From the NCBI GenBank assembly GCA_026770705.1, contig JANJGN010000009.1, positions 140,802,001-140,866,000 of the forward strand: a stretch of 64,000 nt of DNA, read 5' to 3'. The position numbers and the translations under genes are program-made. Source of the stretch: Isurus oxyrinchus. Its lineage: Eukaryota. The notes under the pieces were generated by a model, which was not told the DNA's origin, searched no databases, and saw only the letters and a program-made list of their open reading frames with translations. How positions within the stretch are numbered: the stretch's first letter is position 1; each line of letters starts with the position of its first letter. Positions 3,153 through 64,000 of this stretch are shown one piece after another.

Positions 3153-4675
3153 GGAATAAAGCCTTGCCCTGCAGGCTTCAATAAGTTGCAGCTGAGTAGC
3201 AAAACAATGGCTAAAAATATCACAACAGCACTCATTCATAATCTTAATTGTAATTTTAACGGGGAAATATGCTCGAGTGCCTATGCAGACCAAGATCTCT
3301 CAGCGCTTCTAGAGCTGTCTTCTCCCAGCAGGCAGGATTACTTCACCTGGTACTAATTTCCCCTAGGTTGCTATGGAAATAATAAAAGGATGATCAATAC
3401 AAAGCATTAACTCCTTCATTAGTGACAGCATTGATGTGCCTGCTTCAAAATTCACCTTTCTCCATTGTTGCAGGTAGACCTGGAGATAATTGGAAGATAT
3501 TTCACTTGTGATGATTGGTTGAGGCAGTTTTTTGAAAACACCATCTTTCATAGAAGTGAAACAATACAGGGAGTTCCCCAGCACTGGTGAGATGTTCTGC
3601 TTCATCTGTTAGTACCGCTGCCATAGCTTGCCTTATGTATACACCATTTGAATGTGTGTGGGAGTCAGGACCCAGTGCGGTCTTCAGATGAAGAATGGTT
3701 AAAGTATTGGAGATAAGTGAACCTGGGCACCCAAACGATATTCAGTCCCCATTTTAAATATGTTCTGTCCTTATACCTTGAGTTTCTATGATAGTTAGCA
3801 GTTAAAATCAAAGATTTTGGTGATTTGGGAAGCAGCAAAATTTAAATGGTGAAGCGTATGAGTTTCTTTGTGAGCAGAAGACCTGGGAACCCTCATTTGG
3901 AGGGTGCAATTACAGCATAACAAGTTTATGTTGTCAGCTTCCATTAGTAGTGTGACTGGAAATAGTGACACCACTATTCTTGAGCAGAATGGAGATGATT
4001 AGATAATTACCCCATCAATCAAGCCTGGAGCCCACATTGCTGTAAGTCATCTGGATTGATTTTGCATGCAGAATTTGTATGTAATTATATTGACACTGCA
4101 TTTTGCTGAAGAAATGCCCGATCTTCCATCAGGAGATGTTGCATGGCTTCTGCTCGCTGTAGTTCATAGAGACTCTTCTAGACTTTGCAAACTGTTCACT
4201 GTAGGCCGCTGTTTAACAGACTCCATTTGGTGAGTAAATAGATTTTGATAACTATAAAATAGACTGTTCGCTTAGAGTCTCAACGCAAGTCATTGGCTGA
4301 CACAGTGCAGCTCACTGGCTAGTACAGCAGTATCAATAGGCACCATTTTTAATGTGGGATTTGAGAGTTTATAACTTACTACAGGAGTAAAGTTTGTAAA
4401 CTGAAAATGTGGCTGGAGATAAAAATTTTAGTACGTTAATAGATATTTTTGTTTTCATAATTCTCCCCACCCCTGCCATCTCTCCTGAAAACTCTAACCC
4501 TTGCTGTAGTACACTTTTGTAGTGCTTCATCCAGAATCAGACAGCAATTGGTAGCATGCTATTTGAGTACGGATGGCATCACAACTGAATCTAGTTTTTA
4601 CCCAATGTCTATATGTGTATACATTTGAGCTGGAGTTAACTGATAGCAAACAGAAATAGACAGATTTTTAACTTA

Positions 4676-10739: not shown

Positions 10740-11260
10740 TTCCCAGGGAGCTCCCAAGACTCATATCTTGCACAATTCACAGTTTCCCTAACTTTGAGAC
10801 CCCGGCCCAGATTAATGGCTGGATTCTGAGTGACAAGGGCTATCCCCTCTGGACCTGGCTTATGATACCTGAGAGGCATTCCCGCAGCACAGCAGAAGAG
10901 CATTACAACACAGCCCATATCTCTACCAAAGCCATCACCAAACAGGCCACTGTTTGTGCTCCTGTTGCCTTAAGAAGTCCAGAGGGGCTCTGCAGTATGT
11001 ACCACAAGTGGTTTCATGGATAGTCACAGAATATTGTGCACTGCACAATGTGGCAATGCAATGTGGTGAATTCTTGCATCAGGACAACAGAGAGCAGCAA
11101 AACTCCTCCTTGGCTGAGGATGAATGGGATAAGCCTGAAGAAAAGGACATGAATGTATATGAGCCTCTACTAGATACCAGGGCCTTAGAGGGATATGCCA
11201 TGGATAATCTCACATTGCTCAGGATTGAGTCCTATTGCCAAAAGAGGTTTACCTGCTCAG
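10740..11260 (+). pseudogene. Harbinger DDE transposase C-terminal remnant
   Basis: DKGYP and GALQY...CALHN motifs followed by an acidic tail; frameshifted. Confidence 0.7.
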
Positions 11261-11276
11261 GATGTCTACCAACCCC

Positions 11277-17324: not shown

Positions 17325-19260
17325 ATGGCCCTGAAAGGCAAACAGACAGCAGACCCCAGGCTCAATGATGCGTCCCTCGAGTGCCTTTTGGACACAGTGG
17401 AGGCTCACCGTGATGTCCCCTACCCCCTCTCTGGCCACAGGCTGGGCAGCAACATTACTAATCTTGCTTGGGGGGTGGTGGCAGTGGTGGTCAGTGCCAA
17501 TGCCCTGCAAAAGAAGACAACGACCCAGTGCCGCAAGAGGATGAATGATCTCCTCCGTTCTGGCAGGGTAAGTCACTCTTCTCATCACTCTCAACTCACA
17601 CACTCACAAACCCAATCATACATTCACAGGGCCTGAACTCACTGCTGATTCAAGGGACATCATCATTCACTCTCTCACACTTACCTTCATTGTCCTCATC
17701 CTGTCCATGGGACTACTCACCACCCACAAATGCCAGGCATACTTATCATCTGGCCTGACAGGCATCCTGTTTACACTTTCTCCATCTCTATTCATGCAGA
17801 GCAAGCTGGCATACAACAAGAGGGAGAGATTGCAGACCAGTGGAGGGATGCCTGAAATCAAGGTTCTCATGGGCTTTGAAAACAGGGCCATTCAGCTGGC
17901 CAGCCAGGATCTGGCCCGGTCCTGTGCTGACGATGAGATCAGCAGTGCTCATCCAAGTGAGGATCCAGCAGTGCAACATCCATCAGACAACAATGCCATG
18001 TGTGATGTGTCCTCTTTCACAGGCCCCTACCATGCACCAATTATCTTCCCACACTTCTGCAGGCACATCTGGGAAACAGCTGATGGAGTCCATGACCCAG
18101 GGACTCCAGTCAAGCCTTGAAGAAACCTCTGAAGATGAATCTGGTGGCACCCTCCCTGAAGTCCCATCACAGCGCTCACCCACGCCCTCCACCAGCGCAG
18201 AGACACACACCTCGGTGGGACCCAGCTTTACAGTAGCCTCGGGATCACAATCTGGTGAGAACATTGCACTGTCTAATCCACAACAGGCGGTGGCAGGGAC
18301 TTCCCAGGTCCCCGGCACTGGGAGGACTGCTGGAGGCGAGAAATTTGCTGTGTCTGAGTCAAATGATGCACCTCTGGCCTCGGTCATGTCACGGTTACTG
18401 GAAATGCAAAGGTAAGTTCAGGAACATCAGGAAGGAATGTCAGCTGCACTCCTCAGATTGCACGGCACGAGGGAGGTGTTCCCATCTGCCTTCAGGCTGA
18501 GGTGATAGAGCCGGTATGCCAACGCACCAAGGTCAACACTGGTAGGATGGCGACGGCCATGGAGACTTTGGTCCAGAATTTTGCTCCTGCTGCGCGGGCT
18601 CAATTCCATCACTGACGCCATAGTTGACCTCAAACAGTGTGCATGTGAGAGGGGTATGGGGCAGCTCAATCTCACTCCAGCTACCATTCTCCTGAAGGAG
18701 TCAGCCAAGGGCAATTGAGTGCCCATAGGGAGGAGGATCAGCAATGTGAGGATCTATGGTGTCTCCTCAATGCATGTTGTCATCATCCTCCACAAATCTA
18801 GCAGCTTTGAGGGCCTTCCGAGAACTCCTGCCTCGTCTGGCCAATGCGAGGGACTCAACCCTGTCATTGTCACCTTCGAGGACCTGCTCATCCTCATCCC
18901 CGTGGGTCTCCTCTTCATCGGAGACCTCCAGATCCTCCATCTCCTCCTCAGCCAGCTCCTCTCCCCGTTGCAGCGCCAGGTTGTAAAGGGTGCAGCAGAT
19001 GATGCCCTCCCTGGCGTCATCCATCCAGGTGACTCCAGGACTGTCCGACCCATCCGAATACCCTCTTCCTGTGACCTCAGCAGCTCCAGCTCCACAGGCC
19101 AAAGAGGGTGCCACTGCCACACAGCAGGACCCCAAAAGCAGGCCAGGCCCTCCAGATCTTGGTCCTCCAGATCTTGGCCCTCCAGAGGACGCCCGCCAAG
19201 GTCATCACAGACAGGGCATAGCAGTCAGTAGGCTGCCTCCGGGGAGCGCCAAGACATAGC
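17325..19260 (+). pseudogene. Harbinger Myb/SANT-like DNA-binding protein gene, spliced (exons 17325-17567, 17800-17956, 18063 onward), disrupted after 18415
   Basis: Exon 1 PRLNDASLECLLDTV...W...QCRKRMNDL with GTAAGT donor at 17568. Exon 2 SKLAYNKRERLQTSGG. GT-AG introns with consistent phases (0, then 1). Ser/Thr/acidic exon 3 has a stop at 18413-18415 and a later insertion. Confidence 0.85.
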
Positions 19261-20003
19261 GGCAGGGTTATGAATATTAAGAACGTGTTGTTGCAAAACC
19301 TGGACATGTGTGTTAATCACTTGTATATACTGTTCACTATTGTCGATAAGCTTCCAAGAATGTCCACCTGCCTATGGCTCCTTGTTCTGAAGAGCAGTAT
19401 TCATGTCAGTCAGATATGAAATCTTTCTGTACAAGATAAAGGTGTCTCAGTCCAGGGTCTCTTCCTGTGCTTTGTGGAGCCTTCAGACCAAAGCGATGGT
19501 CCACTCTCACACTCCCTGGACACACTAATGATGTCTGCACATCGATGGTGCTCGTCACTGCTGCCAAAATGTCTTTGGCAGATGTCACGGTGTTCTGTCA
19601 TGCTCCCTGTGCGCTCTCAGCGCCTTTAAGGTTGGGCTGAGCCCTATCTCTTCAGCACCTGTGACCAGTGACGCTGTGCTTTTGAAGGGAACAAGTGCTG
19701 AAGGTGGACAAAGGATCAGATGCTTTTAAAGTTTCATGGCTACATCTCTATGATATGATCCTGATCACAGAGCACAAGTGAGCTGCCCTGGTCCAGACAG
19801 GAGTAAACATTCTCAGAGGCTATGTGAAGATCTATGGAGTGTCCTCACTGCATGTTGTCATCATCCTCCTGCAATCGAGGGACTATTAGGGTCTCCACTG
19901 CATCTCCATGACAGGAGCGTTATCACAGAGGCCATGTGCACTGCTATAAGCCAGACTGGAGTCAAATGTTCAAAGATGCAATGTGAGGATCTATGGTGTC
20001 TCC

Positions 20004-21350
20004 TCAATGCATGTTGTCATCATCCTCCACAAATCTAGCAGCTTTGAGGGCCTTCCGAGCACTCCTGCCTCGTCTGGCTAATGCGAAGGACTCAACCCTG
20101 TCATTGTTGCCTTCGAGGACCTCCTCACCCTCATCCCCGTAGGCATCCTCCTCATTGGAGGAGACCTCCAGATCCTCCATCTCCTCCGCAGCCAGCTCCT
20201 CTCCCCATTGCAGCGCCGGGTTGTAAAAGGCGCAGCAGATGACAACGATGTGTGACACCCTCTGTGGGCTATATTGCAGGGCTCCACCAGACCGGTCCAG
20301 GCACTGGAATCTCATTTTGAACATCCCAAAGGTCTGCTCCACCAAGTTGCGACTTATAACATGAGCTTCATTATATCTTCACTCTGCTGCAGTCTGAGGC
20401 TGCCGCATGGCCTCTGCAGGTAGCCCTTGTCCCTGAGGAGCCATCCCTGCAGCTTCTGTGGGCCCTGGAAGATTTCAGGGAGCCATGACCAAATGAGAAT
20501 GTAGGAGTCATGCACACTCCCTGGAAACTGTGTGCAGACCTGCAAGGTGTGTTTGTGGTGGTCGTACACCAGCTGCACATTTAGTGAATGGAATCCCTTG
20601 TGGTTGACAAAGTTGGCCGCATGTTGCGATGGAGATCTGAGCCTCCAGGATGTCATCTTCCTGATTTGGACCAGTCTCCCCCATGATTCAAGCTAACAGT
20701 GTGGATTCAAGCAGTGTGGATTAGGAGAATGCCTGCAGCTGAACTGAGAGCACAACATGAGTGAACATGAGTGCAGTCGATGGAATACTGCACCCTGCAC
20801 CTGTGGGAAACCTGAGATCTGGGGAAATCCAATCGCTCTTGCAACCTGGCTGTCCTGGTCCTGGGTGAAATGTACAAAATTGTGTGCCCTTGCAAAGATG
20901 GCACCTATGACCTCATGGATGCTTTTGTGGGTGGAGGTGTGTGATATCCCACAGAGATCACTTAGAAATTTAGTGCTGCGGTCACTTTCATGGCCACTGG
21001 CAGTGGATGCCCTCCATGTCCCCATGACGCTAAATCCTGTAGTAGTTGACAGATGTGAGTGACCAGTTCCCTAGACATGTGCAGTTTTCGGTGACCTGGT
21101 TCTCGGTCATCTGTAGGAATGAAAGGCGGTGTCTATAGACCCCGGCTGTCACTAAGCGCCAGCCTGTGATAGCTCGCTGTGGCTCTTCGGTGGCATGTGC
21201 GGGAGCCCCACCCCTTCTTTGAGAGGGTGCAGCTTCTCCCTCTCTGCAGCCAGGCACCTTAGTCTCTCTCTTCTCTTTCATCTTCGCTCTCTGCAAGTCA
21301 TGAGGCATACAACTAGTACACCAGGTTCCATGCTCCTGATGTACTCCTGC
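20004..21350 (-). pseudogene. Harbinger (HARBI1-like) DDE transposase, frameshifted
   Basis: Motifs across frames: DLCGISH, GFPQVQGA-IDCTHV, NHKGFHSLNVQLV, FPGSVHDS, WLLRDKGY, VEQTFGMFKMRFQCLDRSGGALQYSP...CCAFYN. ~120-bp foreign insert near 20645-20765. Confidence 0.92.
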
Positions 21351-23545: not shown

Positions 23546-24629
23546 TAAAAACAGAAAATGCTGAAAAAACTCAGCAGGTCTGGCAGCATCTGTGGAGGAA
23601 AAAATAGAGTTAACGTTTTGAGACCATATGACTTTTCTTCAGAGCTAAAGAATAGATATATGATGAATTTTATACTGTTTAAGGGGGGGCAGAGCAGGTG
23701 GAACAAGATAGAAAGTCAGGGATAGGTGACAGCTAAGGAGAGATTGGAGGATGTCATGGACACAAGACAAAGAGAGTGTTATTGGTAGTGGTAAAGAGTA
23801 AAGAAGGTGCTAATACTGGCATAAAGGTAAGATAGCAGGAGGTGATAATAGAAAAATGAGGATCAACGCTCTGTGAAATCAAAACATAGAAACAAGTGAC
23901 TGATGGCCCAGGGAGGGGGGGAGGGGGAGTTGGAGAAAAAGGATAAAAAATGAACAAATAAATAAAAGAATAAAATGAAGTTAAATGAATGAATAAATAA
24001 AAATGAATGAATAAATAAATAATTGAATTAAAAAAGGGGTCAGGATGGAGGAGAGAGTTCATGGTCTGAAGTTGTTGAACTCAATGTTAAGTCTGGAAGA
24101 CTGTAAAGTACCTAATCGGAAGATGAAGTGTTGTTCCTCCAGTTTGCGTTGGACTTGACAGGAACATTGCAGCAGGCCAAGGACAGACATGTGGGTAAGA
24201 GAGCAAGATGGTGAGTTGAAATGGCAAGTGACAAGAAGGTCTGGGTCATGCTTGCGGATGGACCGAAAATGTTCCATAAAGCGGTCACCAAGACTGCCTT
24301 TAGCCTCCCCAATATAGAGGAGACTGCATTGGTAGCAGCGAATACAGTAGGCCAAATTGAAAGAGTTGCAAGTGAAGCGCTGATTCACCTGGAAGGTGTT
24401 TGGGCCCATGAACAGTGAGAAGGGAGGAGGTAAAGGGGCAGGTGTTGCATTTCCTGCGATTGCATGGGAAGGTGCCGTGGGAAGGGGGTGAGGTGTTGGG
24501 AGTGATGGAGGAATGGGTTAGGGTGTCACAGAGGGAATGGTTCTTACGGAATGCTGATGGTGGTAGGGCTTTGAGGGGAAGATATGTTTGGTGATGGAAT
24601 CATGCTGGTGTTGGCAGAAATGGTAGAAG
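23546..24629 (-). mobile_element. 5'-truncated Penelope-like element
   Basis: ORF 24059-24409 has GIY-YIG (LLYIGEAKGSLGDRFMEH). pLTR with decayed hammerhead near 23606-23646. Possible short TSD AGGTAA. Confidence 0.88.
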
Positions 24630-26001: not shown

Positions 26002-29000
26002 TAGAGTCATAAAGTCCTAGAGGTCCACAGCACTGGAAAAGGCCCTTCGGCTCATCGAGTCTGTACCGGTCAAACAAGTACCTGACTATTCTAATCCCAT
26101 TTTCCAGCACTAGACCCATAGCCTTGTATTCCATGTCATCACAAGTGCACATCCAAATACTTCTTAAATGTTAAAAGGGTTTCTGCCTCTACCACCCTTT
26201 CAGGCAGTGAGTTCCAGATTCCTACCACCCTCTGGTGAAAAAATTCTTCCTCACATCCCTTCTAAACCTCCTGCCCCTTACCTTAAATCTATGCCCCCTG
26301 GTTATTGATCCCTCCACCAAGGGGGAAAGTTCCTTCCTGTCTACCCTATCTATGCCCCTCATAATTTTATGCATTCCAGGGAAAATAACCCCAGTCTATC
26401 CAACCTCTCCTCATAACTAAAACTCTCCAGCCCAGGCAACATCATGGTAAATCTCCTCTGCATTCTTCTGGTGCAATCACATCCTTCCTATAATGCGCAT
26501 TCCAGAACTGCACGCAATACTCTAGCTGTGGCCTAACCAGCGATTTATACAATTCCAGCATAATCTCCCTGCTCTTATATTCTATGCCTTGGCTAATAAA
26601 GGCAAGTATCCCATATGCCTTCTTAACAACCTTTCATCTACCTGTCTCGCTACCTTATGGGACCAGTGGACATGCACACCAAGGTCCCTCTAATCCTCAG
26701 TACTTCCCAGGGTCCTACCATTCATTGTGTATTGCTGTGCCTTGTTTGTCCTGCTCAAGTGCATCACCTCACACTTATCCAGATTAAATTCCATTTGCCA
26801 CTGATCAGTCCATCTGACCAGCCCATCTATATCCTCCTGTAATCTAAGGCTATCCTCCTCACTATTTGCCACCTGAATAAATTTTTATGTCATCCACGAA
26901 CTTACTGATCAACCCTCCTACATTCACGTCTAAATCGTTTATATATACTACAAACAGCAAAGGACCCAACACCGATCCCTGTGGAACCCCACTGGACACA
27001 GGCGTATTAGTCACAAAAACACCCCTCAATCTTCACCCTCTGCTTCCTGCCACTCAGCATATTCTGGATCCAGTTTGCCAAATTGCCTTGGATCCCATGG
27101 GCTCTTATCTTCATTATCAGTCTCCCATGCGGGACCTTATCAAAAGCCTTGCTGAATTCCAAGTAGACTTCGTCATATGCATTGCCCTCATCTACATACC
27201 TGGTCACCTCTTCGAAAAATTCAATTAAATTGGTCAGACATGACCTCCCCTTAACAAAACCATGCTGACTGTCCTTGATTAATCCCTGCCCCTCCAAGAG
27301 TAAATTAATACTGTCCCTCAGAATTGCTTTCAATAGTTTCCCCATCACTGAGGTTAGACTGACTGGCCTGTAGTTCCCTGATTTATCCTTTTTCCAGTCT
27401 TCGGGCACCTCTCCTGTGGCCAGAGATGTATTGAAAATTATTGCCAGCGCCCCTGCTATCTCCTCTCTTGCCTCATTCAACAGCCTGGGATACATTTCAC
27501 CTGGGCCTGGAGATTTATCTACTTTTAAACCTGCCAGACCACTTAGAACCTCCTCCCTTTCTATGCTAATTTCTTTAATTATATCACAGCCCTTCAGCCT
27601 GATTTCCATACCCACATCGTCCCTCTCACTTGTGTCATCCACGAACTTACTAATCAACCCTCCTACATTCATGTCTAAATCGTTTATATATACTACAAAC
27701 AGCAAAGAACCCAACACCGAACCCTGTGGAAACCCACTGGACACAGGCATATTAGTCACAAAAACACCCCTCGATCTTCACCCTCTGCTTCCTGCCACTC
27801 AGAAAATTCTGGATCCAATTTGCCAAATTGCCAACACAAAGTATTCATTTAGAACCCTACCTCTGTCTTCCGGTTCCACACACAAATTACCACTATGGTC
27901 CTTAATGGGTCCTACTCTTTCCCTAGTTATCCTGTTACTCTTAATGTACTTGTAAAATAGCTTTGGATTTTCCTCAATTTTACCTGCCAATGTTTCTTTA
28001 TGCCCCTACACATTCTATACTCCTCTAGGGCTTCTGCTGTTTTGAGCCCTCGGTATCTGCCATAATCTTCCCCTTTTCTCTTTATCCACTCCTGTATATC
28101 CCCTGACATCCAGGGTTCCCTGGATTTGTTGGTCCCATCCTTTGTCTTTACTGGAATATGTTGGCCCTGTACTCTCCCTATTTCCTCCTTGAATGAGTCC
28201 CACTGCTCTGACACAGATTTACCTAAAAGTTGCTGCTCCCAGTCTACTCTGGCCAAATCACATCTGATCTTATTAAAATCGGCCTTTCACCAATTTAGAA
28301 CTCTGATTTCTGGACCATCCTTGTCATTTTCCATAACAACCTTGAATCTAACGGAGTTATGATCACTATCTGCAAAATGTTCCCCCTCTGATACCTCTAG
28401 CACTTGCCCGGCTTCATTCCATAAAATTAAGTCCAGGACTGCTCTCTCTCTTGTAGGACTTTCTATGCACTGGCTTAAAACCCCTCCTGGATGCATTTTA
28501 AGAATTCCGCTCCCTCTAAACCTATCACACTATGACTAACCCAGTTAATGTTGGGGAAGTTGAAATCTCCCACTGTTACTACCCTATTATTTTTACACTC
28601 TCTGAAATTTGCCTACACATCTGCTCTTCTATTTCTCTCTGACTGTTTGGGGGCCTATAGTACACTCCCAGCAATGTGATTGCTCCCTTTTTGTTCTTCA
28701 GTTCAATCTATATGGCTTCATTTGAGGAGCCTTCTAAGATGTCATCCCTCCTTACTGCTGTAATTGATTCCTTGATCAATATTGCGATACCCCCTCCTCT
28801 TTTACCTCCTTCCCTGTCTCACCTCAAGACCATATATCCTGGAATATTCATCTGCCAATCCTGCCCCTCTCTTAACCATGTCTCTGTGACAGCAATGACA
28901 TTATACTTCCAGGTGTTAATTTGTGTCCTCAACTCATCTGCCTTATTCGTCAGACTCCTTACATTAAAAATACCATCCAACATTGCCAAACTCCCTTGTG

Positions 29001-41739: not shown

Positions 41740-44700
41740 TTCAGCTCCCTAGTGCCTTTTTGCTTTCAAAATGGCATCCATGGCTTGCACACATTTCCGG
41801 TGTTAGCAGTGCAGGCGCCATGTAGACAAGGGCATTAGTACGTGTACAGGGAGCAACCACCAGAAGTATGCAGGCTAGGTAGATGGTGACTTCAATCAAT
41901 ATGTAGTTGATCTGATGCTAGCAGTGTCATTTTGGAGCTCAGTGCTGCAACTAATACCCTCTCTTAAATATGCACAGCTGGACATGTGCTCAACAGTAGG
42001 CAGGATCCCTTCACCTCCAACCTCCACCATACTTTTAATACAAGGCGTGCTGCCACTCCATGTTATCGAACAGACCTTTAAAACGCTTAAACAGTTGGAA
42101 TGCTCTGGAGAAGCCCTACAGTACTAAGCAGAGTGCATGCCAAGATTCATGGTGGTCTGCTGCATGCTTGCCATCATGACAGCATATCTCTTACTACCAA
42201 CTATATGGCCACCATCTGAGGAGGAGGAGGAGGAGCTCAGCACAGTCTTTTTCTGGCTGGGTTCTCTATGGCTCGTTAATTTGACAGTGATACCAGTAAG
42301 CACAACTCCAGTTCCCCATACACTTGCAATCCCATACCTTACCATCTCCCTGTTACTGATCATTGTAGCAATTTTGGCATCAATGCAAAAACAAATGGCA
42401 CCACAAAGTTAACAGATCAAACTGAATTTTTAAAAAACTCAAACCATCCCATATTGCAAACAAAGAAAAACTAATCACCTTTGTGCATTCGCTTGGTGCC
42501 TAATTTCTGTGTGCCGTTGCTTGTCCTATGCTTCTATGCAGTGCTACCCCAACGGCTTTGGAGGTTGACTGTTAGTGGACAAAAATCCCGATGGCCTTGG
42601 AGGCCACACTTAAGCAATCTGGCCCGAGAACTGCACCGCCTTGACGTTGGCGGCAGCTGTCTGGACTGGCTTTCTGACAGGCAACAGTGAGGTCACTGGT
42701 GGAATGGCATTGACGGGGGGACAAATGTCGTTATCCTGAAAAAGGACAGCAAGTTCCACAGGGCCTCCTGCCACTATGCCGGGATGGAACATCAGCAATC
42801 CTCGTAATTTGTTTGAGGACAGAATGCCACACTGGCTGCGATACCCTGCAGGCCCCTTTTGAACACTGATCAGCACTGGTCAGAGCTTGCCTGCCAACTA
42901 GTTCAGCTTGCATGACCTCATTCTGAGCTTCCACTGCAGCACCTGGACACTGGGTGTCCTTTGCCTGTACTGTAATGAAAGCTGAGAAATTGGTCATCAG
43001 ACACTGCATCACGGTTGGGTCTGCAAGTGTGTTAATGGAGTTGGCCACTTCAAATTTTTTATTCATTCAGGGGATGAAAGTGGTCATCTCTGGCTAGACC
43101 AGCAATTATTGCCGGTCCCTAGTTGCCCTTGAGAAGGTGGTGGGGAGCTGCCTTCTTGAACTGCTGCAGTCCACGTGGTGTAGATACACCCACAGTGCTG
43201 TTGGGAAGTGAGTTCCAGGATTTTGACCCAGTGACAGTGATGGAACGGCGATATATTTCCAAGTCAGGATGGTGAGTGACTTGGAGGGGCACTTCCAGGT
43301 GGTGGTGTTCCCATCTATCTGCTGCCCTTGTCCTTCTAGATGGTAGTGGTCATGAGTTTGGAAAGTGTTGTCTCAGGAGCCTTGGTGAATTCCTGCTGTG
43401 CATCTTGGCAGATGTGTGTCTGTGGTGGAGGGAGTGAATATGTGAGGAAGGGGTGCCAATCAAGTGGGCAGCTTTGTCCTGGATGGTGTCAAGCTTCTTG
43501 AGTGCTGTGGGTGCTGCAGTCATCCGGGCAAGTGGAGAGTATTCTGTCACACCCCTGATTTGTGCCTTGTAGATGGTGGACAGGCTTTGGGAAGTCAAGA
43601 GGTGCATTAATCGTCACACAATTCCTAGCCTCTGACCTGCTTTTGTAGCCACAGTATTTATATGGCTAGTCCAGTTCAGTTTCTGGTCAATGGTAACCCC
43701 CAGGATGTTGATAGTGGGGGATTCAGTGATGGTAATGCCATTGAACATCAAGGGGTGATGGTTGGATTCTCTCTTGTTGGAGATGGTTATTGCCTGGTAC
43801 TTGTGTGGCGTGAATGTTACTTGTCACTTGTCAGCCCAAGCCCGTATATTGTCCAGGTTTTGCTGCATTTGGACATGGACTGCTTCAGTATCAGAGGACT
43901 CGCGAATGGTGCTGAACATTGTGCGATCATCAGCAAACATCTCCGCTCCTCACCTTATGATGGAAGGAAGGTAGGTCATTGATGAAGCAGCTGAAGATGG
44001 TTGGTCCGGGGACACTACCCTGAGGAACTCCTGCAGTGACGTCCTGGAGCTGACGTGACTGACCTCCAAAAACCACAAGCATCTTCCTTTGTGCTAGGTA
44101 TACCTCCAACCAGTGGAGAGCTTTCCCCCGATTCCCATTGACTTCAGTTTTGCTAGGGCTCCTTGATGCCACACTCGGTCAAATGTGGCCTTGATGTCAA
44201 GGGCAGTCACTCTCACCTCACCTCGGGAGTTCAACTCTTTTACCCATGTTTGAACCAAGACTGTGATGAGGTCAGGAGCTGAGTGGCCCTGGCGGAACCC
44301 AAACTGGGTGTCAGTGAGCAGGTTATTGCTAAGCAAGTGAAGCTTGATAGCACTGTTGATGATCCCTTCCATTAATTTACTGATGATGGAGAGTAGACTG
44401 ATGGGGCTGTAATTGGCCGGGTGGATTTGTCCTGTTTTTTGTGTACAGGATATATCTGAGCAATTTTCCACATAGCCGGTTAGATGCCAGTGTTGTAGCT
44501 GTACTGGAACAGTTTGGCTAGGAGTGCAGCAAGTTCTGGAGCACAAGTGTTTAGTACAATTGCCGAATGTTGTCAGGGCCCATAGCCTTTGCAATATCCA
44601 GTGCCTTAGCAGTTTCTTGATATCATGTGGAGTGAATTGAATTGGCTGAAGACTGGCATCTATGATGCTGGGGACCTCCGGATGGCTCATCCACTTGGCA

Positions 44701-45410
44701 CTTCTGGCTGAAGATTGTAGCAAATGCTGTAGCCTTATCCTTTGCACTGATGTGCTGGGCTCCTCCATCATTGAGGATGGGGATATTTGTGGAGCCTCCT
44801 CCTCCAGTGAGTTGTTTAATTGTCCACCACCATTCATAACTGAATGTGGCAGGACTGCAGAGCTTAGGTCTGATCCATTGGTTGTGGGATCGCTTCACGT
44901 TGTCTATCACTTGTGCTTATGTGTTTGGCACACAAGTAGTCCTGTGTTATAGCTTCACAGGGTTGGCACCTTATTTTTAGGTATTCCTGTTGCTGCTCCT
45001 GGCAATCCCTCCTGCACTCTTCATTGAACCAGGGTTGATACCCTGGCTTGATGGTAATGTTAGAGTGGGGGATATGATGGGCCATAGTGATACAGATTGG
45101 CCGATGGCCCACAGCACCTCATGGATGCCCAGACTTAAGTTGCTATTTCTGTTTGAAATCTATCCCATTTAGCACGGTGGGAGTGCCACACAACACAATG
45201 GAGGGTATCCTCAATGTGAAGGCAGGACTTTGTCTCCACAACGTCTGTGCAGTGATCATACCTACCGGTACTGTCATGGACAGATGCATCTGCAGCAGGC
45301 ACTTTGGTGAGGATAAATTACCAGGCAGGAGAAATTTTGCAACAGGCATTAGTTAACCAAGCATTGTGATTCCCATGCCCATTTTCAGGGCTTATACAAT
45401 TCTGCGGCCA
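41740..45410. mobile_element. Internally deleted Harbinger relic hosting a LINE insertion (boundaries approximate)
   Basis: Plus-strand transposase tail GEALQY*AECMPRFMVVCCML plus acidic run (~42105-42240). Region 42450-43050 resembles the Myb-gene 3' portion at 12590-12900. Confidence 0.5.
43055..45320 (-). mobile_element. 5'-truncated CR1-group LINE (second family)
   Basis: RT motifs PANYSPISLLSIISK, QFGFRQGHSAPDL, ALDIKATFDRVWHQG, AGVPQGSVPGP; upstream PWFNEECR; poly-A/ATGA tail. Confidence 0.92.
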
Positions 45411-46422: not shown

Positions 46423-48500
46423 GAGCAAAAAGCAAAATACTGCGGATGCTGGAAATCCGAAACAAAAAACAGAAAATGCTGGAAAAACTCAGCAGATCTG
46501 TCAGCATCTGTGGGGAGAGAAAGAGTTGACATTTTGAATCTGTATGACCCTTCTTCAGAGCTAAAGAGAAGGAGAAATGTTATGAAATTTATACTGTTTA
46601 AGGGGGGGTGGAGCAGCTAAAGCTGGATAGAGGGCCAGTGATAGGTGGGGGCAAAAGAGAGATTGACAAAGATGCCATGGACAAAAAGGGGAGTGTTCAT
46701 GGGCTAAAAAAGGTGCTGATGTGGTAAAGGTATGAAAGCAGAATATGATAATAGCAGAGCAAGGATAAGCACTCTGAAAAGAACAACATGGAACAAGTAA
46801 CAGATGGCCCTTGTGGGGGTGGGGTGGGGTGGGGTGGAGGGAGGGGGCAGTGGATAGAAGGATTGAAAATGGGATAAAAAGGGGGTTAAAAAGTGATAAA
46901 ACAATGAATAAATAAATAGAAATAAAAATAAATAAAAATAAGTAGATAAAAAATAAAAATTAATTTTGAAAAAGGGGATAAAAAAGGAATGAAGTTAGAG
47001 GAGAGTTATGGTCTGAATTTGTTGAACTCAGTGTTAAGTGCGGAAGGCTGTAAAGTGCCTAGTCGGAAGATTAGCTTTACTGGAACATTGCAGCAGGCCA
47101 AGGACAGACATGTGGGCATGAGAGCAGGATGGTGCGTTGAAATGGCAAGTGATGGGAAGGCCTGGGTCATGCTTGTGGACAAACTGAAGGTGTTCCGCAA
47201 AGTGGTCACCCAGTCTGCGTTTGGTCTCCCCAATGTAGGAGACACCGCACTGGGAGCAGCAAATATAGTAGATCAAATTGAAGGAGGTGCAAGTGAAGCG
47301 CTGCTTCACCTGATGGGAATGTTTGGACCCTTGGAAGGTGAGAAGGGAGGAGGTAAATGGGCAGATGTTGCACCTTCTGCAATTGCTTGGGAAGTTGCCG
47401 TGGGAAGGGGATGAGGTGTTGGGGGTGATGGAGGAATGGAGCAGGGTGTCCTGCAGGGAATGGTCCTTATGGAATGCTGAGAGTGGGGGTGAGGGAAGAT
47501 GTGTTTGGTGGTGGCATCATGCTGGAGTTGGCAGAAATAGCAGAGGATGATCCTTTGAATGCAGAGGCTAGTGGGGTAAAAAGTGAGGACAAGGGGGACT
47601 CTATTCATGATCCTGGGAGGGAGAGGAAGGTGTGAGGGCAGAGGCATAGTGAATGGGTCGGACTTGGTTGAGGGTCCTGTCAACCACAGCGGGTGGGAAA
47701 CCTTGGTTAAGGGAGAAGAGAGTCATGTCAGAAGTGTTGTTTTGGAAAGTGTATTCATCGGAACAGATGCGATGGAGGTGAAGAAACTGAGAGAATGGGA
47801 TGGAGTCCTTATAGGAAGCAAGGTGTGAGGAGCTATAGTCGAGGTATCTGTGGGAGTCGGTGGGCTTATAATGAATATTGGTGGACAGTCTATCACCAGA
47901 AATGGAGACAGAGAGGTCAAGAAATGGAAGGCAAGTGTCAGAGATGGACCATGTGAAGGTGATAGAGGGGTGGAAATTGGAAGCAAAATGAATTCAATTT
48001 TTCCAGGTCCAGACGAAAGCATGAAGCGGCACTTTTTATTTTATTTTTTCAAATTTTTATTCATTTATTCATTGTTTTATTCCCTTTTTATCCCCCTTTT
48101 TATCCCATTTTCAATCCTTCTTTCCCCACCACTGCCCCATCCCCCACCCCACCTCCCTCAAGGGCCATCCATTACTTGTTCATGTTGTTCTTTTCAGAGT
48201 GCTTACCCTTGTTCAGCTATTATCACATCCTGCTTTCTTACCTTTGCCTCTATCAGCACCTTTTTTAGCCCTTACTCCCTTTGTCCTTTCGTCCATGACA
48301 TCTTTGTCAATTCCTCCTTTGTCCCCACCTATCACTGGCCTTCTATCCAGCTTCAACTGCTCCACCCCTCTTAAACAGTATAAATTTCATCACATTTCTA
48401 CTTCCCTTTAGCTCTGAAGAAGAGTCATACGGGCTCAAAATCTTAACTCTGTTTCTCTCTCCACAGACCTGCTGAGTTTTTCCTGCATTTTCTGTTTTTG
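46423..48500 (-). mobile_element. Penelope-like element with inverted pLTRs
   Basis: Minus-strand GIY-YIG (CSQCGVSYIGETKRRLGDHFAEH) and RT C-terminus to ~48030, then an inverted copy of the ~470-bp terminus. 13-bp TSD TTGGTGATGATCT (46410-46422) / TTGGTGGTGATCT (48501-48513). Confidence 0.92.
48410..48448 (+). ncRNA. Decayed hammerhead ribozyme motif in PLE terminus
   Basis: AGCT-CTGAAGA-A-GAGTC-ATACG-GGCTC-AAAA-TCTT-AACT; GAAA has become AAAA, consistent with CpG decay. Confidence 0.45.
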
Positions 48501-52661: not shown

Positions 52662-55600
52662 AATATTTCAGAAATACAGACAGAATGGCAAAGGGTGATA
52701 GTAAAGGATGACATAAGGACATTAGTAAGAAAGGATCTGGCCTCAGATCAACATAAAGTCGAATCAGTATGGGTGTAAATCAGTCATAGCAAGATCAGAA
52801 AAGAGTGGTGGGAATAGTTCATAGGCCCCCTAACAGTAGTTAAACTGTTGTGCAGAGCATTAAACAAGAAATCATTGGAGCTTGTAACAAAGGAATGTAA
52901 TAACTGTGGAGGGCTTTAATCTTCATATAAATTGGGACAACCAAGTGGCAAGAGTGATCTAGAAGATGAGTTTGTAGAATGTTTTTGTAACAGTTTCTTG
53001 GAGCAATATATTGTAGAACTAATTAGGGATAAAGCTATCTTAGACCTAGTATTGTGTAATGAAGCAGAGTTAATATGTAATACAGTAAAAGATCCACTGG
53101 GAATAGTGACCATAACACCATTGAATTCCATGTTAAGTTTGAAAGTGACATATTCTAATCACAACCAGGAATCTTAAACTTTAACAAAGTCAATTACATA
53201 GGTGTGAGGAGTAAATAGGCTCAAGTTAATTGCGTAAATAGCCTAAAAGGTATGGAGGTAAATGAACAGTGGGAAATGTTTACGGAAACAATTCAAAATG
53301 TTCAACAAAAATACGTTCCATTGGAAAACAAAAACTCAGCAAAGAAAACTTATCTGTGACTCACTCAGCAAGTTAAAGATATTATTAGGTTAAAAGAAGA
53401 GGCTTACAATGTTGTAAAAATAACAGTAGCAAGTCTGAGGATAGGGAGTATTTTAAAAACCAGCAGAAGGCTACCAAAAAGTTGATAAAAAAGGGAAAAA
53501 GATAGAATGAGAGTACACTGTCCAGAAATATAAAAACAGACTGTAAGAGTTTTTGTAAGTATATGGAAAGGAAGAGATTAGCTAAAGTAAACATTGGTCC
53601 CTTAGAAACAGAGACAGGAGAAATTATCATGGGCAGTGAGGAAATAGCAGAGGCATTGAACAAACATTTTGTGTCTGTCTTCACAGTAGAAGGCACAAGT
53701 TTCCTACCAGAAATAGACAGTAACCTAGGGACTAAAGAGAGTGAAGAAATTAATATCAGTGGAGAAGTATTAGAGAAACTTAAGGGACTAAAATCCAACA
53801 AATCCCTGGGACCTGGTGGCCTACACCCTTGGGTTCTAAAAGAGATAGCTACAGAAATAGTGGATGCACTCGTTATGATTTTTCCAAAATTCCTTAGATT
53901 CAAGAATGGTTTCCCATTGGAAAGGAAGGAGAGAGAAAACATTGAACTGCAGGCTAGTTAACCTAACATCAATTGTTTGGAAAATGCTGGAATCTATTAC
54001 TAAGGAAGTTTTAACAATGTACGTAGAAAAGCATAGTATGATTAAAACAAGTCAACATGGTTTTCCAATAGGGAAATCCTGCTTCACAAATTTATTAGAG
54101 TTCTTTGAGGATGTGACTAGTAGGTAGATAAAGGGGAAACCAGTAGATGTAGTATACCTATATACCTGTATTTCCAAAAGGCATTCAGTAAGGTTTCGCA
54201 CAAAAGGTTAATAGGCAAGATAGGACTCATGGAATTGGGGGTAATATTTTAACATGGATAGAGGATTAGTTAATGGATAGAAAGCAGAGAGTGGGCATCG
54301 ATGGGGCTTTTTCAAGTTGGCAGGTAGTGAATAATGGAATGCCACATGGATCAGAGCGGGTGCCTCAGCCATTTACAATCTATACTCATTAAGTAGATGA
54401 AGAGACAGAGAGTAATGTATCAAAGTTTGAAATAATACAAAGCTATGTGAGAAGGTAACCTGTAGGGAGGACACAGAGAGGCTGCAAAGAAATATAGATG
54501 GGTTAAGAGAGTGGGCAACAAGATGGCAGATGAAGTATAATGTCTGAAAGTATGAAGTTATTCACTCTGGTCATGAGAATAGGAAAACAGAATATTTTTG
54601 AAAGGCGCGAAACTTGGAAGTATTGATGTTCAAAGAGACTTGGGGGTTCTCATACAAGGAATACCGGAAGTTAGTATGCAGGTAGGCAAATGCTGGCCTT
54701 TATTGCAAGGGTATTGGAGTACAAGAATAAAGCCTAGAAACAATTGTACAGCGTTTTGGCAAGACCATGTCTGGAATACTGTATCAGAAAGAAAGAGTAT
54801 ACTTGCATTGGAGGTGGTACAGTGAAGATTCACTAAATTAGTCCCTGGGATGAGGGGGTTGTCCTATAATGAGAGACTAAGTAAATTGGTCTTATATTCT
54901 CTGGACTTTAGAAGAATGAGAGGTGATCTCTTTGAAACCCACAAAATTTTGAAGGGGCTTGATAAGGTAGACACTGAGAAAGTGTTTCTGCTGGTCGAGG
55001 AATCTAAAACATGGGGGCACAGTCTCAGGTAAGGGGCCGATCATTTAGGACTGAAATGAGGATAAATTACTTCATCCAAAAGATTGTGAATCTTGGAATT
55101 CTCCACTCCAGAGGGTTGTGGATGGTCTATCGTTACATACATTTAAGGCTGGGTTGGACAGATTTTTGCTCTTTCATAAATTAAGGGATATGGGGAGTGG
55201 GCGGGAAAATAAAGTTGAAGCTCACGATCAGCCATGATCGTAGTGAATGACAAAACAGGCTCGATGGGCCATATGGTCTACTCCTGCTCCTACTTCTTGT
55301 GTCTTGTGTTCATTGTCTGTCTACCTGTCTTCTGGATTACGGATTGTAATATCCTTGTCAAGCTATATTAATCTCTCAATCAGATATAACTGTGAAGAAA
55401 TAGGTTAGTTTAATTTCCTTTTAATTTGATAAAAAAATAATCTTAAGATAGGATAAGTTATAGAAAACAAGCAAGCTGTTAGAGCTGCTATTATGATGTC
55501 AAATGCCTATGAAGGACAATTATTCTTCTCCAGGTAGCATCCTTGATTATTTGAGGGTTGCTGAACCACAGTTTATTCTGTGATTTTACTACAGGGCATG

Positions 55601-58907: not shown

Positions 58908-60160
58908 GATCTTCTGAGCCATATACTTAGCTTCTGGAGATAACTTAAGTACTAAGCTTTAAAAATTTAAATGGGATAATTGCTTGGAGGTATTGTACTT
59001 AACTTTTCAAATTACATCCTTAGCTTTGTGAATTGACCTTTGTGCAGGTACATCTCATGTGCCAATGACGATGGTAAATGCTATGTGTTACATACTTTGT
59101 AATTCCAGTCACTTTCCTGCAGCTCCAATTGATTATGGCAGCTAGCATGAGACACTAGAGTCAGTGGTAATACAATGTACAGGTTTTAATGTAAATAAAA
59201 CCATATCCTGAGCAAGTATACTTTAACCCTGCAGGATTTCTTAAACTGAATGCATAGCAGAATACTTCACCAGTAGTAGTTTTGAAACTGTGTCAGATTA
59301 GCAGTTGATTGTTTTTGCAGATTTCAAACTAAAATGTTGCAGCAACTGGTTAAGTTTTGACAAATCTTAGCTGAGCTATTTGATCAGATGGTGTGCAGAA
59401 GTGAGAGCCTCCACCTTGGGTAGATGATAAAACTGACATCGACCTGCTTGTCAATTTGAATCATACCTCCTGCCAGTTGACTACAGAATACCGTTTGATA
59501 GCATTGTGCAGACCTGCACAGAAAAGGATTCATGGTGACAAGGGAACATATAAATCAGTGCTGCCATCACGTCATGATCATTTTATTGGGACGAAACTAT
59601 GTTTGGGCTTTAAATAGAACAGAAACAACTGAACATTAAAGGGAAGAGTGGAGATATTCAAATGCAAATGGTCTTCACAGGAAAATTCAAATTCCCATTG
59701 TCATTCCAAATGAATGTGATGGCATGTACTGTAACCGTCTGTATTACAATCTGCCATTGAGTGATGCATGACCTTGAAGCATTTTAGTAAAGTTCTGAAT
59801 TTGTCCTCTGGGATAGTACAGTAGTGGCACCTTCATGTTTAACTTTGAGTTTTCTCACAGCTTTTGTTTTATACTATGTACTATCATGTGACCTGAATGG
59901 GATATCTGTATAGTGGCAGCTTTTGCCAAAGCAAAGGGTGGCCAACTAGCAAGGATAACTGAAGGGCAATCCAGTTTAAAAATGCTCTCTGTGTTAACTT
60001 CCTCTCATTGACTAGGTATTTCATGACCAGACAGAACTGTCAGCTTGGCAACTTGGAGGAACAACTGCAATTGAGACTTAGACAAAGCCTCCTGGTTTGT
60101 CGCAAAGCATTGGTCTCTCATCAGGCTGTCCAGTATTGCCTCTTCAACAAATAATGTGGC

Positions 60161-60395
60161 TGTAGTAATTATAGTTCTGATAAACACAGGACTGTAGATT
60201 TAAGAATAATTCAGTGTTGTAAGATCACATGATCTGTGTAAACCAATGGGTTAGCAGCATAGGGAACCACAAGGAGAGAATTCTTCTTTAGTTATGGAGC
60301 TCGATGCACATATGTAGCTGCTGCTGCTGTTGTCTTGAAAATAAAGTTCAATGTTTCTACCAAGAAGAGTTGCCTGGAAAATCAACTCTATAACA
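60161..60395 (+). repeat. 5' LTR (235 bp)
   Basis: TGTAGTAATTATAG...CTATAACA, contains CCAAT and AATAAA; direct repeat of 62384-62612. Confidence 0.93.
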
Positions 60396-60397
60396 AG

Positions 60398-60411
60398 TTG
60401 ATGACAAGGAT
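60398..60411 (+). other. Degenerate primer-binding site (tRNA-Ser-like)
   Basis: TTGATGACAAGGAT resembles TGGCGACGAGGAT, the complement of the tRNA-Ser(GCU) 3' end, with CpG-type changes. Confidence 0.5.
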
Positions 60412-60493
60412 AAATCAGATCCAGTGCTGTCCCTTGCCTAGCGATTGTGTGTATCTAAGATAATTAGAAAGAAAGGAAGGTGTACTCATCTGA

Positions 60494-60690
60494 GATGCCG
60501 CAGTTTGACAGAATCGATCCCTTTGAGCCAGCCACAGACGACTGGTCTCAATATATAGAATATATATCTTGAGCTCTACTTTCAAGCCAATGAAATCACG
60601 GAAAAGAGGAGAGCGATTCATTTATCATTGTGAAAACAAACATACTCCTAACGATTGGCAATTTAAAAAGGTGGAGTGTTATTTTGTCAC
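60494..60690 (+). pseudogene. Deleted, frameshifted gag N-terminus
   Basis: MPQFDRIDPFEPATDDWSQYIE...YFQANEITEKRRAI. One lost T at ~60682 splits the C-x2-C-x4-H-x4-C knuckle (CYFCHKCGHILKDC). Confidence 0.75.
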
Positions 60691-61806
60691 AAATGTGGAC
60701 ACATATTGAAAGATTGCAATGTGAGATTAAAACAGGCTTCCAGGCAACAAATGAAGTCCAATGAAGTATATAGTGTGGAAGAGCCAGAAACAACCAATTC
60801 TGACATTTATTCCTTCTTCAGCATGAAAGTTGGGAAGACAGAGCCAATTTCAATCACATTGCAAGTGAATGGTAAACCCTTAAAAATGGAAGTAAACACT
60901 GCAGTAGGAGAACACACTTTCAGATATTTAAATAAAGGTGATCAACAATTAAATTTGGAACAAACCTCTGCCAAGTTGAAAATGTACATCAGCAAAGAAA
61001 TCCAGGTAAAAGGTATCACCAGAGTACCTGTTTATTATAGACATCAAATATCACAACTACCAGTGATGGTACTAGAAGGCAGAGGACTAAGACTTCTAGG
61101 CCAAAATTGGTTGAAGGAAATTAATCTTGATTGGCCAGTGAGATTTCAAAAGGAAGCTGGAAGAGTTCCTAAGTTGGAAAAGGAACAAGGCGAGGTACTT
61201 CAGAAAGAGCCTGGAGAGCCCAATGATTGCAACTGGATGAAAAAGGAGTGCGTAGCCATTCAGCAACCTGAAGAAATGCAAACTGTCTTAAACAATGACT
61301 TGGAAGAACAGCAGGAGAAACTCAAAGAGACTCTGCTGAATGACAGAATTCAAAATGAAGTGAGTGAGTTTCACAAAGAAAAAGTAAACATGTTGAAAGA
61401 CCTTCACACACTACAAGGATCCCTCAGGTCAAATTTTGTGCCTCTGGAAAATTACGAAGAGAAGCAGGATGAATTTAATGTCACACTGAGCAAACTGAAG
61501 AACGAGTTGGCAGAGAAGACGCAGCAATGTTCAAGATTCCAAGAGGAAGTCAAAAGGTACAAGAAGGAGACAGAAGAGCTGAAGAATCAGCTGGACGAAG
61601 TTAAGGAGACTTTGAAAGCAAAAGTCAAAGAACTTTCCAAAATGCAAATAGATAATGAAATCCTGGGTAGTTCAACTACTGAACTAAGACAAGTTGAAAT
61701 TTCATCTGAGAAAATTCTGGCTGGCAGTGAAGTAAAAAAAAAGGCCGAGACTAAATTCTGTGGTAGAGAAAAAAAGACACAAAGGAAGAGGATGCAGAAT
61801 TATTGA
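60676..61806 (+). CDS. Chimeric ORF (376 codons; first ATG 60751): knuckle remnant, degenerate retropepsin, UACA/ANKRD24-like coiled coil
   Basis: Longest ORF in the window. PISITLQVNGKPLKMEVNTA...LLGQNWL protease with DTG altered to NTA, followed in frame by ~190 aa of E/K/Q/L-rich heptads. Expression unknown. Confidence 0.6.
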   Translation: MLFCHKCGHILKDCNVRLKQASRQQMKSNEVYSVEEPETTNSDIYSFFSMKVGKTEPISITLQVNGKPLKMEVNTAVGEHTFRYLNKGDQQLNLEQTSAKLKMYISKEIQVKGITRVPVYYRHQISQLPVMVLEGRGLRLLGQNWLKEINLDWPVRFQKEAGRVPKLEKEQGEVLQKEPGEPNDCNWMKKECVAIQQPEEMQTVLNNDLEEQQEKLKETLLNDRIQNEVSEFHKEKVNMLKDLHTLQGSLRSNFVPLENYEEKQDEFNVTLSKLKNELAEKTQQCSRFQEEVKRYKKETEELKNQLDEVKETLKAKVKELSKMQIDNEILGSSTTELRQVEISSEKILAGSEVKKKAETKFCGREKKTQRKRMQNY

Positions 61807-62320
61807 TGAGGTGCCATTTTTGAACAAGACTAAGCCTGATACTTCCCAATTTGATGGGGAAGGTGGAGAAAAGTCAAGGGAACCAAAAAGTGAATCATGA
61901 TTTGCATAGCTGTGAGCAACAATGTACTGTTGGAGAAGCGACGTAAGTAAAGAATTTCAATGAAGGACTGAAGTGGTTACCAGGCAAAGTAAGTTCGTGA
62001 CCGTACCATTGTCGTACCACATGGAAGTAGAGGTCACCTGTAAGCACGTGGCTTATTTAAGAAGAAGGGAGATACCCCAACAAAATGATGTTCCACCTGC
62101 AAGCATTGCTGAACCTCTGGTTCCTGTTGAAGTTGCTCAACCAAGGATAGACATACCTAATCTCTTTGTTGGAGTGCACGACACTGAACTGCTTGTTCCT
62201 AATAGGGTACCTGATGTTAATGCAGCCCCAGAGAATGCGGTTCCTGCAAAAGAACCTGAAGTCATGAAGCTGCGATGGTCCACATGGATCAGGAGACCAC
62301 CTGAAAGTCTGAACTTGTAA
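61794..62320 (+). pseudogene. Integrase C-terminal remnant
   Basis: AELLMRCHF*TRLSLILPNLMGKVEKSQGNQKVNHD, then PLSY...KHVAYLR and LRWSTWIRRPPESL, typical Gypsy/Mag pol ending. Confidence 0.75.
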
Positions 62321-62370
62321 TTTCATGACCTGTGTAAAAATTGTAATATCACAAAATATACAGAAAAGAT

Positions 62371-62383
62371 AAAGGGGGAGGAA
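62371..62383 (+). other. Polypurine tract
   Basis: AAAGGGGGAGGAA directly upstream of the 3' LTR. Confidence 0.9.
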
Positions 62384-62612
62384 TGTAGTAATTATAGTCC
62401 TGATAAATGTAGGACTGAGGCTTTAAGAATAAGTCTGTGTTGTAAGATCTCACAGTCTGTGTAAACCAATGGGTTAGCAGCATGGGGAACCTCTAGGAGA
62501 GAGTTCTTCTTTAGTTATGGAGTTTAAGCATATGTAGTTGCTGCTGCTGTCTTGTAAATAAAATTCAGTGTTTCCACCAAGAAAAGTTGCATGGAAAATC
62601 AACTCTATAACA
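62384..62612 (+). repeat. 3' LTR (229 bp)
   Basis: Direct repeat of 60161-60395; by hand count about 28 substitutions and two small indels. Confidence 0.93.
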
Positions 62613-62752
62613 GTGTTTTTGTGTTAAACTGAAGTAAAATCTCTATACTCATCTATCCTTCTCATCAGCTAAACCTGACTTTGTGACTCAATTAAAACAG
62701 AAAGACTCAGTAAGATAAAAAGGGACAGAGCAGCCATATTCAAATACAAACC

Positions 62753-63985
62753 TTTTTTTTTAATTCATTCATGGGATGTGGGCTTCACTGGCTGGGCCAG
62801 CATTTATTGCCCATCCCTAGTTGCCCTTGAGAAGGTGGTGGTGAGCTGCCTTCTTGCTGCAGTCCATGTAGTGTAGGTATGCCCACAGTGCTGTTAGAAA
62901 GGGAGTTCCAGGATTTTAAGCTAGCAACAGTGAAGGAATGGTGATATATTTCCAAGTCAGGTTGGTGAGTGACTTGGAGGGGAGCTTCCAGGTGGTGGTG
63001 TTCCCATCTATCTGCTGCCCTTGTTCTTCTCAATAGTAGTGGTCAGGGGTTTGGAAGGTGCTGTCTCAGATACACACTACTATTACTACTTTGCGTTGGT
63101 AGTGGAGGGAGTGAATGTTTGTGGATGTAGTGTCAATCAAGGGGGCTGCTTTGAACTGGACGGTGTCAAGCTTCTTGGGTGTTGTGGGAGCTGCACTCAT
63201 CCAGGCCAGTGGAGAGTATTCCATCACTCCTGACTTGTGCCTTGTAGATGACGGACAGGCTTTGGGAGTCAAGAGGTGGGTTACTTGTTGCAAGATTCCT
63301 AGCCTCTGACCTGCTCTTGTAGCCACAGTATTTATATGGCTAGTCCAGTTTAGTTTCTGGTCAATGGTAACCCACAGGATGTTGATACTGGGGGATTCAG
63401 TGATGGTAATGCCATTGAATGTCAAAGGGCGATTGTTAGATTCTTTCTTGTTGGAGATGGTCATTGCCTGACACATGTTTGGCACAAATGTTACTTGCCA
63501 CTTGTCAGCCCAAGCCTGCAAATTGTCCAGGTTTTGCTGCATTTGGGCAAGGGAGTGCTTCAGTATCTGAGTCATCATGAATGGTGCTGAACGTCATGCA
63601 ATCAACAGGGAACATCCCCGCTTCTTGTCTTATGATGGAAGGAAGGTGATTGATGAAGCAGCTGAAGATGGTTGGGCCGAGGACATTACCCTGAGGAACT
63701 CCTGCAGTGATGTCCTGGAGCTGAGGTGACTGACCTCCAACAACCACAACCATCTTCCTTTGTGCCAGGTATGACTCCAACCAGCAGACAGTTTTCCCCC
63801 TGATTCCCATTGACTCCAGTTTTGCTAGGATTCCTTGATGCCACACTCTATCAAATGCTGCCTTGATGTTAAGGGCAGTCACTCTCATCTCACCTCGGGA
63901 GTTCAGCTCTTTTGTCCATGTTTGAACCAAGGCTGTAATGAGGTCAGGAGCTGAGTAGCCCTGGTGGAACCCAAATTGGGCAAGT
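62753..63985 (-). mobile_element. 5'-truncated CR1-group LINE (second family)
   Basis: QFGFHQGYSAPDL, ALNIKAAFDRVWHQG, AGVPQGNVLGP, LDNLQAWADKWQVTF; colinear with 43055-44305. Confidence 0.92.
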
Positions 63986-64000
63986 GCCACTTGTTAGCAC

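Follow-up and report, generated by a model that had tools for sequence, protein, structure and literature searches.

A Gypsy-type LTR element of Isurus oxyrinchus carries a fragment of host UACA in place of its pol core, a cargo likely acquired second-hand

A decayed Gypsy-type LTR element at positions 60161–62612 of the window (the whole 64,000-nucleotide stretch of Isurus oxyrinchus DNA analysed here; assembly GCA_026770705.1, contig JANJGN010000009.1, positions 140,802,001–140,866,000 of the forward strand) carries a coiled-coil fragment of the host gene UACA where the reverse transcriptase (RT), RNase H and integrase core would lie. The element bears the Ty3/Gypsy hallmarks of paired TG...CA LTRs, a primer-binding-site-like stretch, a polypurine tract and a target duplication, and is a non-autonomous Ty3/Gypsy-type LTR retrotransposon derivative that may belong to the Mag clade. 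The explanation that we judge best, and hold to be probable, is that the UACA fragment is second-hand, near-neutral cargo of this element and was copied by the enzymes of a partner; the cargo was likely taken from another LTR family by RT template switching. The observation on which the initial annotation of this DNA had been built is confirmed, and its interpretation, an in-frame capture of a host mRNA fragment by this element itself, is partly supported.

The two LTRs of the element are 87.7% identical (Table 1). A stop-free frame of 379 aa (60667–61806) connects a zinc knuckle, a degenerate protease and the coiled coil, consistent with the in-frame fusion proposed at the outset, and the motifs named in that proposal lie at 61171, 61249 and 61435. 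The fused ORF stops at 61804–61809, by which point the integrase tail has resumed in another frame, again as had been read. The segment comprising the gag end and protease is 79–87% identical to RT-bearing partner copies. The window copy lacks about 550 nt of gag, found in other copies, behind its gag 5' remnant; in sister copies, gag-like Pfam matches were obtained below the cut-off. The left junction between backbone and UACA lies near 61231–61237, and the start of the UACA segment, placed at 61219 in the initial annotation, has to be moved to 61237; 61125 to ~61231 aligns weakly to the protease-RT linker of the partner.

Table 1. Features of the LTR element, in window coordinates
Feature	Position	Strand	Remark
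Left target-site copy	60156..60160	+	3/5 bases identical to right copy, 62613-62617
5' LTR, TG...CA	60161..60395	+	
Primer-binding-site-like stretch, unlike that in families B/C	60399..60411	+	
gag 5' remnant, broken frame	60495..60619	+	
gag end (zinc knuckle) and aspartic protease, degenerate active-site motif	60621..61124	+	
Diverged remnant of protease-RT linker	61125..61236	+	weak alignment to partner linker
UACA piece 1 (host exon L013 3004-3356), sense, in protease frame	61237..61586	+	
UACA piece 2 (host exon L013 3798-3905)	61578..61689	+	joined via 9-nt repeat
~100 nt directly behind UACA, common to families B/C	61690..61792	+	
Integrase C-terminal tail, out of frame with fused ORF	61793..62320	+	
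Polypurine tract	62371..62383	+	same tract in 20 copies
3' LTR, TG...CA	62384..62612	+	

Other repeats share the window with the element. LINE-type RT frame fragments and associated repeats occupy 62750–64000, 43050–44900, 53400–54100 and 26900–27950, the fragment at 62750 being extremely abundant in the contigs. Repeated frames at 14991–15683, 24059–24517 and 47034–47516 resemble Penelope-type endonuclease ends, and the frames at 10873–11331 and 17085–20160 resemble a Harbinger-type transposase and its Myb-like partner; the latter region includes two direct-repeat copies of 183 nt, at positions 18741 and 19978.

A protein search with the coiled coil gave five matches among 1498 candidates, every one named shark UACA, the best with an E-value of 3.6e-40 and 60% identity. 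The large UACA exon of the same genome (G000:C25:4881192-4883918) is AG/GT-bounded, has neighbouring exons and is 98.8% identical to Carcharodon protein P0002. At the DNA level, window 61237–61586 matches this exon at 272 of 353 nt (77%) and 61578–61685 at 76 of 108 nt (70%). The assignment to host UACA, originally made by alignment to human UACA, is therefore borne out by nucleotide-level matches to an exon of the element's own genome, and an artefact of low-complexity coiled-coil matching was rejected on the strength of both the UACA protein matches and the DNA match. The UACA part of the window lies wholly in this one exon and, being confined to it, cannot reveal an mRNA origin. It contributes ~150 of the ~190 coiled-coil codons, in two pieces joined at a 9-nt repeat over a deletion of 450 nt. 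The cargo as a whole, lying in frame behind gag-protease, measures about 560 nt and derives mostly from this exon. Of the ~190 codons first described as captured, these ~150 stand as UACA; the last ~100 nt are not UACA and are common to families B and C (below), and a comparison with UACA, TPR and the third host exon described below gave no source for them. The first, 5' 850 nt of the host exon are single-copy in the genome, whose 40 non-host matches to the 3' part of the exon stop at L013 3905–3909 in 39 cases, the remaining one being a short piece; this common end point, together with the single-copy 5' region, argues for one capture.

The shared integrase tail was used as a probe. Of its 40 matches, 30 were examined as loci: 15 carry UACA, 13 carry an integrase core and none carries both. 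An RT match was found in 12 of the 30, one of which, L220, also has 108 nt of the insert. When fetched wider, all 13 integrase-core loci carry RT-like DNA, and these RT-type loci match the 3' LTR, protease and tail of the window element at ~72–87% (13/13). The match between partner and window stops at ~61124, is weak up to ~61231 and restarts at 61793, spanning a gap of ~2.25 kb in the partners (median) versus 0.67 kb in the window element, in agreement with the initial claim that the RT/RNase H/integrase core had been replaced. The UACA segment is absent from the RT-bearing members of the family and hence is no regular component of the autonomous elements. The partners have the order PR-RT-RH-IN; in sister-family copies, RT, RNase H and the integrase zinc finger reach the Pfam cut-off and rve falls below it. 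None of 414 candidates matched in a protein search with the protease part, and none of 30 generic integrase loci matched the backbone of the window element.

The family of the window element, family A, is dispersed. All 40 scored insert matches are near full length at ≥85%, the UACA match starts at L013 2999–3036 in 40 of 40 copies, and the second UACA piece is seen in 38. UACA continues the protease frame in 28 of the 38 copies scored, and 26 of these 28 have an identical distance between the two; in 23 of 38 the tail of the integrase is displaced by +1. Target duplications of 5 bp agree at ≥4 of 5 positions in 17 of 26 copies scored, nine perfectly (control, 0/26), and dispersed copies with target duplications of their own represent further retroposition as a non-autonomous element. 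Family A is old, as its median LTR identity of 85.9% (20 of 40 copies) indicates. First-look candidate counts of 4591, 6068, 993 and 2348, together with contig depth, suggest many copies and are not to be read as copy numbers. Two basking-shark gene models labelled "uncharacterized" match the insert, one of A type, with the deletion junction and flank as in the window at 67% identity, and the other of B/C type. Six A copies (L087, L091, L100, L104, L105 and L111) have ~120 nt extra before the usual right junction, which in five of the six matches partner integrase, a second right-junction variant; two A copies end like basking-shark P0006. One A copy, L085 (G000:C25:4965272), is separated from the UACA exon of the host by ~81 kb, a proximity that is likely due to chance.

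Longer pieces of the same UACA segment reside on two other LTR backbones, B and C. Across 50 B/C loci the segment spans L013 2359–3909 with recurring deletions; L078 was left out as a duplicate of L077, giving 49 copies (32 B and 17 C), and the possible duplicates L162/L166 and L242/L243 were retained. Probing with the A backbone by blastn matched none of the 50 B/C elements, barring a separate neighbouring element in L033. The LTRs differ from those of A, as do the bases that follow the 5' LTR (primer site; 20 A, 14 B and 8 C copies compared). The 450-nt deletion of the window element and the ~100 nt that follow its UACA recur in some B/C copies, with the counterpart of UACA piece 2 running to L013 3909; the piece in the window is nested in this longer capture. 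Median LTR identities are 79.5% in B (14/32) and 81.9% in C (8/17).

The cargo of family B includes two further host genes. A B-family frame scores above the Pfam cut-off for Nucleoprot-TPR, and B copies match nine separate host TPR exons, in order. At least one spliced TPR junction is present in 27 of 49 B/C copies, unspliced TPR controls were found in none of the 49, and TPR junctions were found in none of 40 A copies. The spliced TPR piece therefore demonstrates an RNA route for the donor family. Between UACA and TPR, 38 of the 49 copies have 63–270 nt of a third host exon (G000:C19:47785257-47786987; L257:2757-4487, minus strand), a 576-codon open coiled coil that has no element DNA around it and has upstream coiled-coil exons in L262–L263. 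Pfam and PDB searches gave no name for this exon, which may belong to ninein, and a protein search with the B linker matched none of 74 candidates. An internal repeat of the L257 exon also matches the element piece. The third exon and TPR overlap by 8 nt in the alignments. The chimeric B frame comprises the gag N-terminus, UACA, the third-gene exon and spliced TPR, and this multi-gene chimera is limited to family B; the window element has UACA and the ~100 further nt.

At the commonest spacing, a single frame extends from UACA across the third exon to TPR, and the modal state is in frame at six steps along this path (31/38, 18/23, 10/16, 11/18, 5/8 and 10/12); a single long-range test of the UACA-TPR frame gave counts of 6/5/4. 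UACA continues the gag frame in 15 of the 27 B/C copies that were scored. The ~150 nt preceding UACA 2359 and the ~90 nt following 3909 in B/C are likewise coiled-coil-like and in frame; they may represent further host donors, and comparison of the ~150 nt with UACA, TPR and the third exon gave no source. In a B subfamily (L023, L024, L029 and L031), UACA 3831–3909 lies upstream of 2425–3430..3771, an order that suggests tandem duplication followed by deletion, and in family C (L034, L035, L138 and L139) a 39–45-nt tandem repeat has expanded between gag and UACA.

The same insert is found on a sister backbone, A2, which is ~71% identical to that of A and was sampled in 20 of 40 matches fetched. 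A2 carries the RNase H end and integrase behind a stop, and of 25 loci with A2 integrase DNA, 13 have UACA and 12 have RT-type sequence instead. Protease runs into UACA in frame in 17 of 19 A2 copies. Each non-autonomous family is about as close to its own RT-bearing partner as its copies are to one another, which suggests that the cassette switched backbone again, into A2. A UACA tree was built from a shared region of 338 nt (337 columns) and 46 rows (10 of 40 A, 10 of 20 A2, 17 of 32 B, 8 of 17 C and the host) and rooted by the host row only. It separates B and the host from C, A and A2 at 99/96 and unites A with A2 at 100/99, the A2 UACA sitting on a long branch beside A. From the host root, the nested deletions and the LTR ages, we infer an order of hand-overs that would run from the host to B, then to C, to window family A and finally to A2.

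Read as a mechanism, family B would have gathered host pieces by template switching onto co-packaged mRNAs, and microhomology deletions would then have shortened the cargo. B/C RNA co-packaged with partner RNA would have passed on the 3' part, and the cassette would have moved again to A2. The enzymes of the partner likely copied the cargo element, co-packaging and trans-mobilisation being presumed steps. The frames may have stayed open mostly since A-rich coiled-coil codons recombine in frame, with mild selection against stops at most.

Whether the cargo encodes a working protein decides between the near-neutral reading, which we favour, and its main rival, in which a Gag(-protease)-coiled-coil fusion co-assembles with helper particles and favours the packaging of the RNA that encodes it, so that open frames and coiled-coil donors were selected. 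A polarised test came out neutral: changes on the element lineage number 69 nonsynonymous to 29 synonymous, with 27.2 synonymous expected (P = 0.37). Among these 98 changes no stop was fixed versus 3.5 expected (P = 0.023), rare changes in B have a similar stop deficit (P = 0.044), and at every codon fewer than half of the copies have a stop. Relative to the host, no difference was seen between shared and rare changes (P = 0.34, 0.49 and 1.0), in a test from which the CpG filter took out almost nothing. Fixed UACA differences between A and A2, in element codon context, number 38 nonsynonymous to 28 synonymous with 18.8 synonymous expected (P = 0.009, or 0.023 when a second copy served as reference), an excess that speaks for the working protein. 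Gag and protease compared between A and A2 have omega-like values of 0.12–0.24. The out-of-frame integrase tail has a similar synonymous excess (0.22), so that the backbone signal likely accrued in autonomous ancestors, and its reading as a need of the non-autonomous element was rejected.

In-frame architecture is the other argument for the working protein: the three donors are all coiled-coil, in sense and in one frame, UACA is joined in frame to protease in A and A2 and to gag in B/C in the proportions given above, and the modal frame persists at the six steps to TPR. All six shared deletions (282, 102, 450, 126, 117 and 96 nt) are likewise in frame. However, exact repeats are in frame in 72–100% of cases within a gene and in 56–70% between genes, and the six deletions were rejected as proof of selection on the former figure. 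Coiled-coil exons share 57–66 8-mers per million position pairs, versus 24–33 with pol, a density about 2–2.5 times as high, and 62–70% of those shared among coiled-coil exons are in frame, making in-frame joins the default outcome between such exons. The cargo has also been cut repeatedly, from >1.5 kb to ~0.45 kb. These mixed results favour selection on the cargo protein that is absent or weak, and we regard the working fusion as unlikely. Equally doubtful is the fuller account in which host coiled-coil fragments replaced pol, the Gag fusions were selected as parasite proteins and the cassette hopped between helper families. Speculatively, the identity of the donors could reflect the sites at which particles encountered mRNA; NIN mRNA in human cells is found at centrosomes (PMC7921559), a setting for which TPR and UACA are not mentioned.

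A DNA-level route, in which ectopic recombination, gene conversion or break repair moved the cargo between integrated copies, is quite improbable. The genome is dense in these elements, neighbouring copies occur (L033), and the left backbone/UACA junction, at which the alignments reveal no clear microhomology, counts against the template-switch account. On the other hand, the spliced TPR piece requires an RNA template, no blastn similarity between the A and B/C backbones exists to guide recombination, and the products have paired LTRs and 5-bp target duplications of their own. Capture by the window family straight from host mRNA, independent of B/C, which was the initial proposal and accords with the sense orientation and the in-frame join behind protease, is largely refuted and most improbable of all, because the piece is nested in the B/C capture, shares its 450-nt deletion, 3' end point and ~100-nt non-UACA flank, and groups with C, away from the host.

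Taken as second-hand cargo, these elements form a dated fossil series of vertebrate gene capture, from three host genes through shared deletions to what appear to be two backbone hand-overs, in many copies. Sequence data can thereby be used to test if a non-autonomous element gains from the coding cargo that it has captured, and if sequence make-up or the location of mRNAs biases what is captured. The series also carries a warning for annotation, in that the "uncharacterized" basking-shark gene models are copies of these elements, and probes for UACA, TPR and the third gene will cross-map in lamniform genomes.

Among known systems, Mag-type Ty3/Gypsy elements resemble the window element in their short LTRs and 5-bp target duplication and resemble its partner in having one gag-pol frame with the order PR-RT-RH-IN; the window family differs in lacking RT, RNase H and the integrase core. 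Replication-defective transducing retroviruses carry a Gag-host fusion in place of pol and need a helper. The shark element is like them in its Gag-host fusion replacing pol and its dependence on a helper, whereas no env or infectious stage was seen and there is no sign that the host-derived protein gave a benefit. Retroviral capture of mRNA is also mentioned by Tan et al. 2016 (PMC5131818), who describe LTR-mediated retroposition, with chimeras of several genes and renewed mobilisation of the products, in fly, mosquito, zebrafish, chicken and mammals, in a main text in which the word shark does not occur. The mechanism is therefore known, from that work and from maize Bs1, and the "undescribed system" of the initial annotation was an overstatement. 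The literature searched described neither the scale seen here nor a set of three in-frame coiled-coil donors, a hand-over between families or a UACA capture in a shark retrotransposon, and genome-paper supplements or repeat libraries may hold the families unnamed. Bs1 is like family B in having three host-gene fragments and one hybrid frame within an LTR element (PMC13317346, PMC5131818), but it is a plant element with unrelated enzyme donors and, in these accounts, is reported as a new chimeric gene; the donors of the shark families are all coiled-coil proteins, and the copies examined are all old and diverged. A further likeness is to the retrocopies of Tan et al. as described there (PMC5131818), in which partial host mRNA stands in place of the internal ORFs between LTRs, multi-gene chimeras and a sense and in-frame bias occur, and the products serve as non-autonomous elements in later cycles. 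Those retrocopies are described as a handful of young ones per species, whereas in the shark a chimera appears to have given rise to several many-copy families older than the basking-shark split, and its cargo to have crossed into backbones with other LTRs and another primer site.
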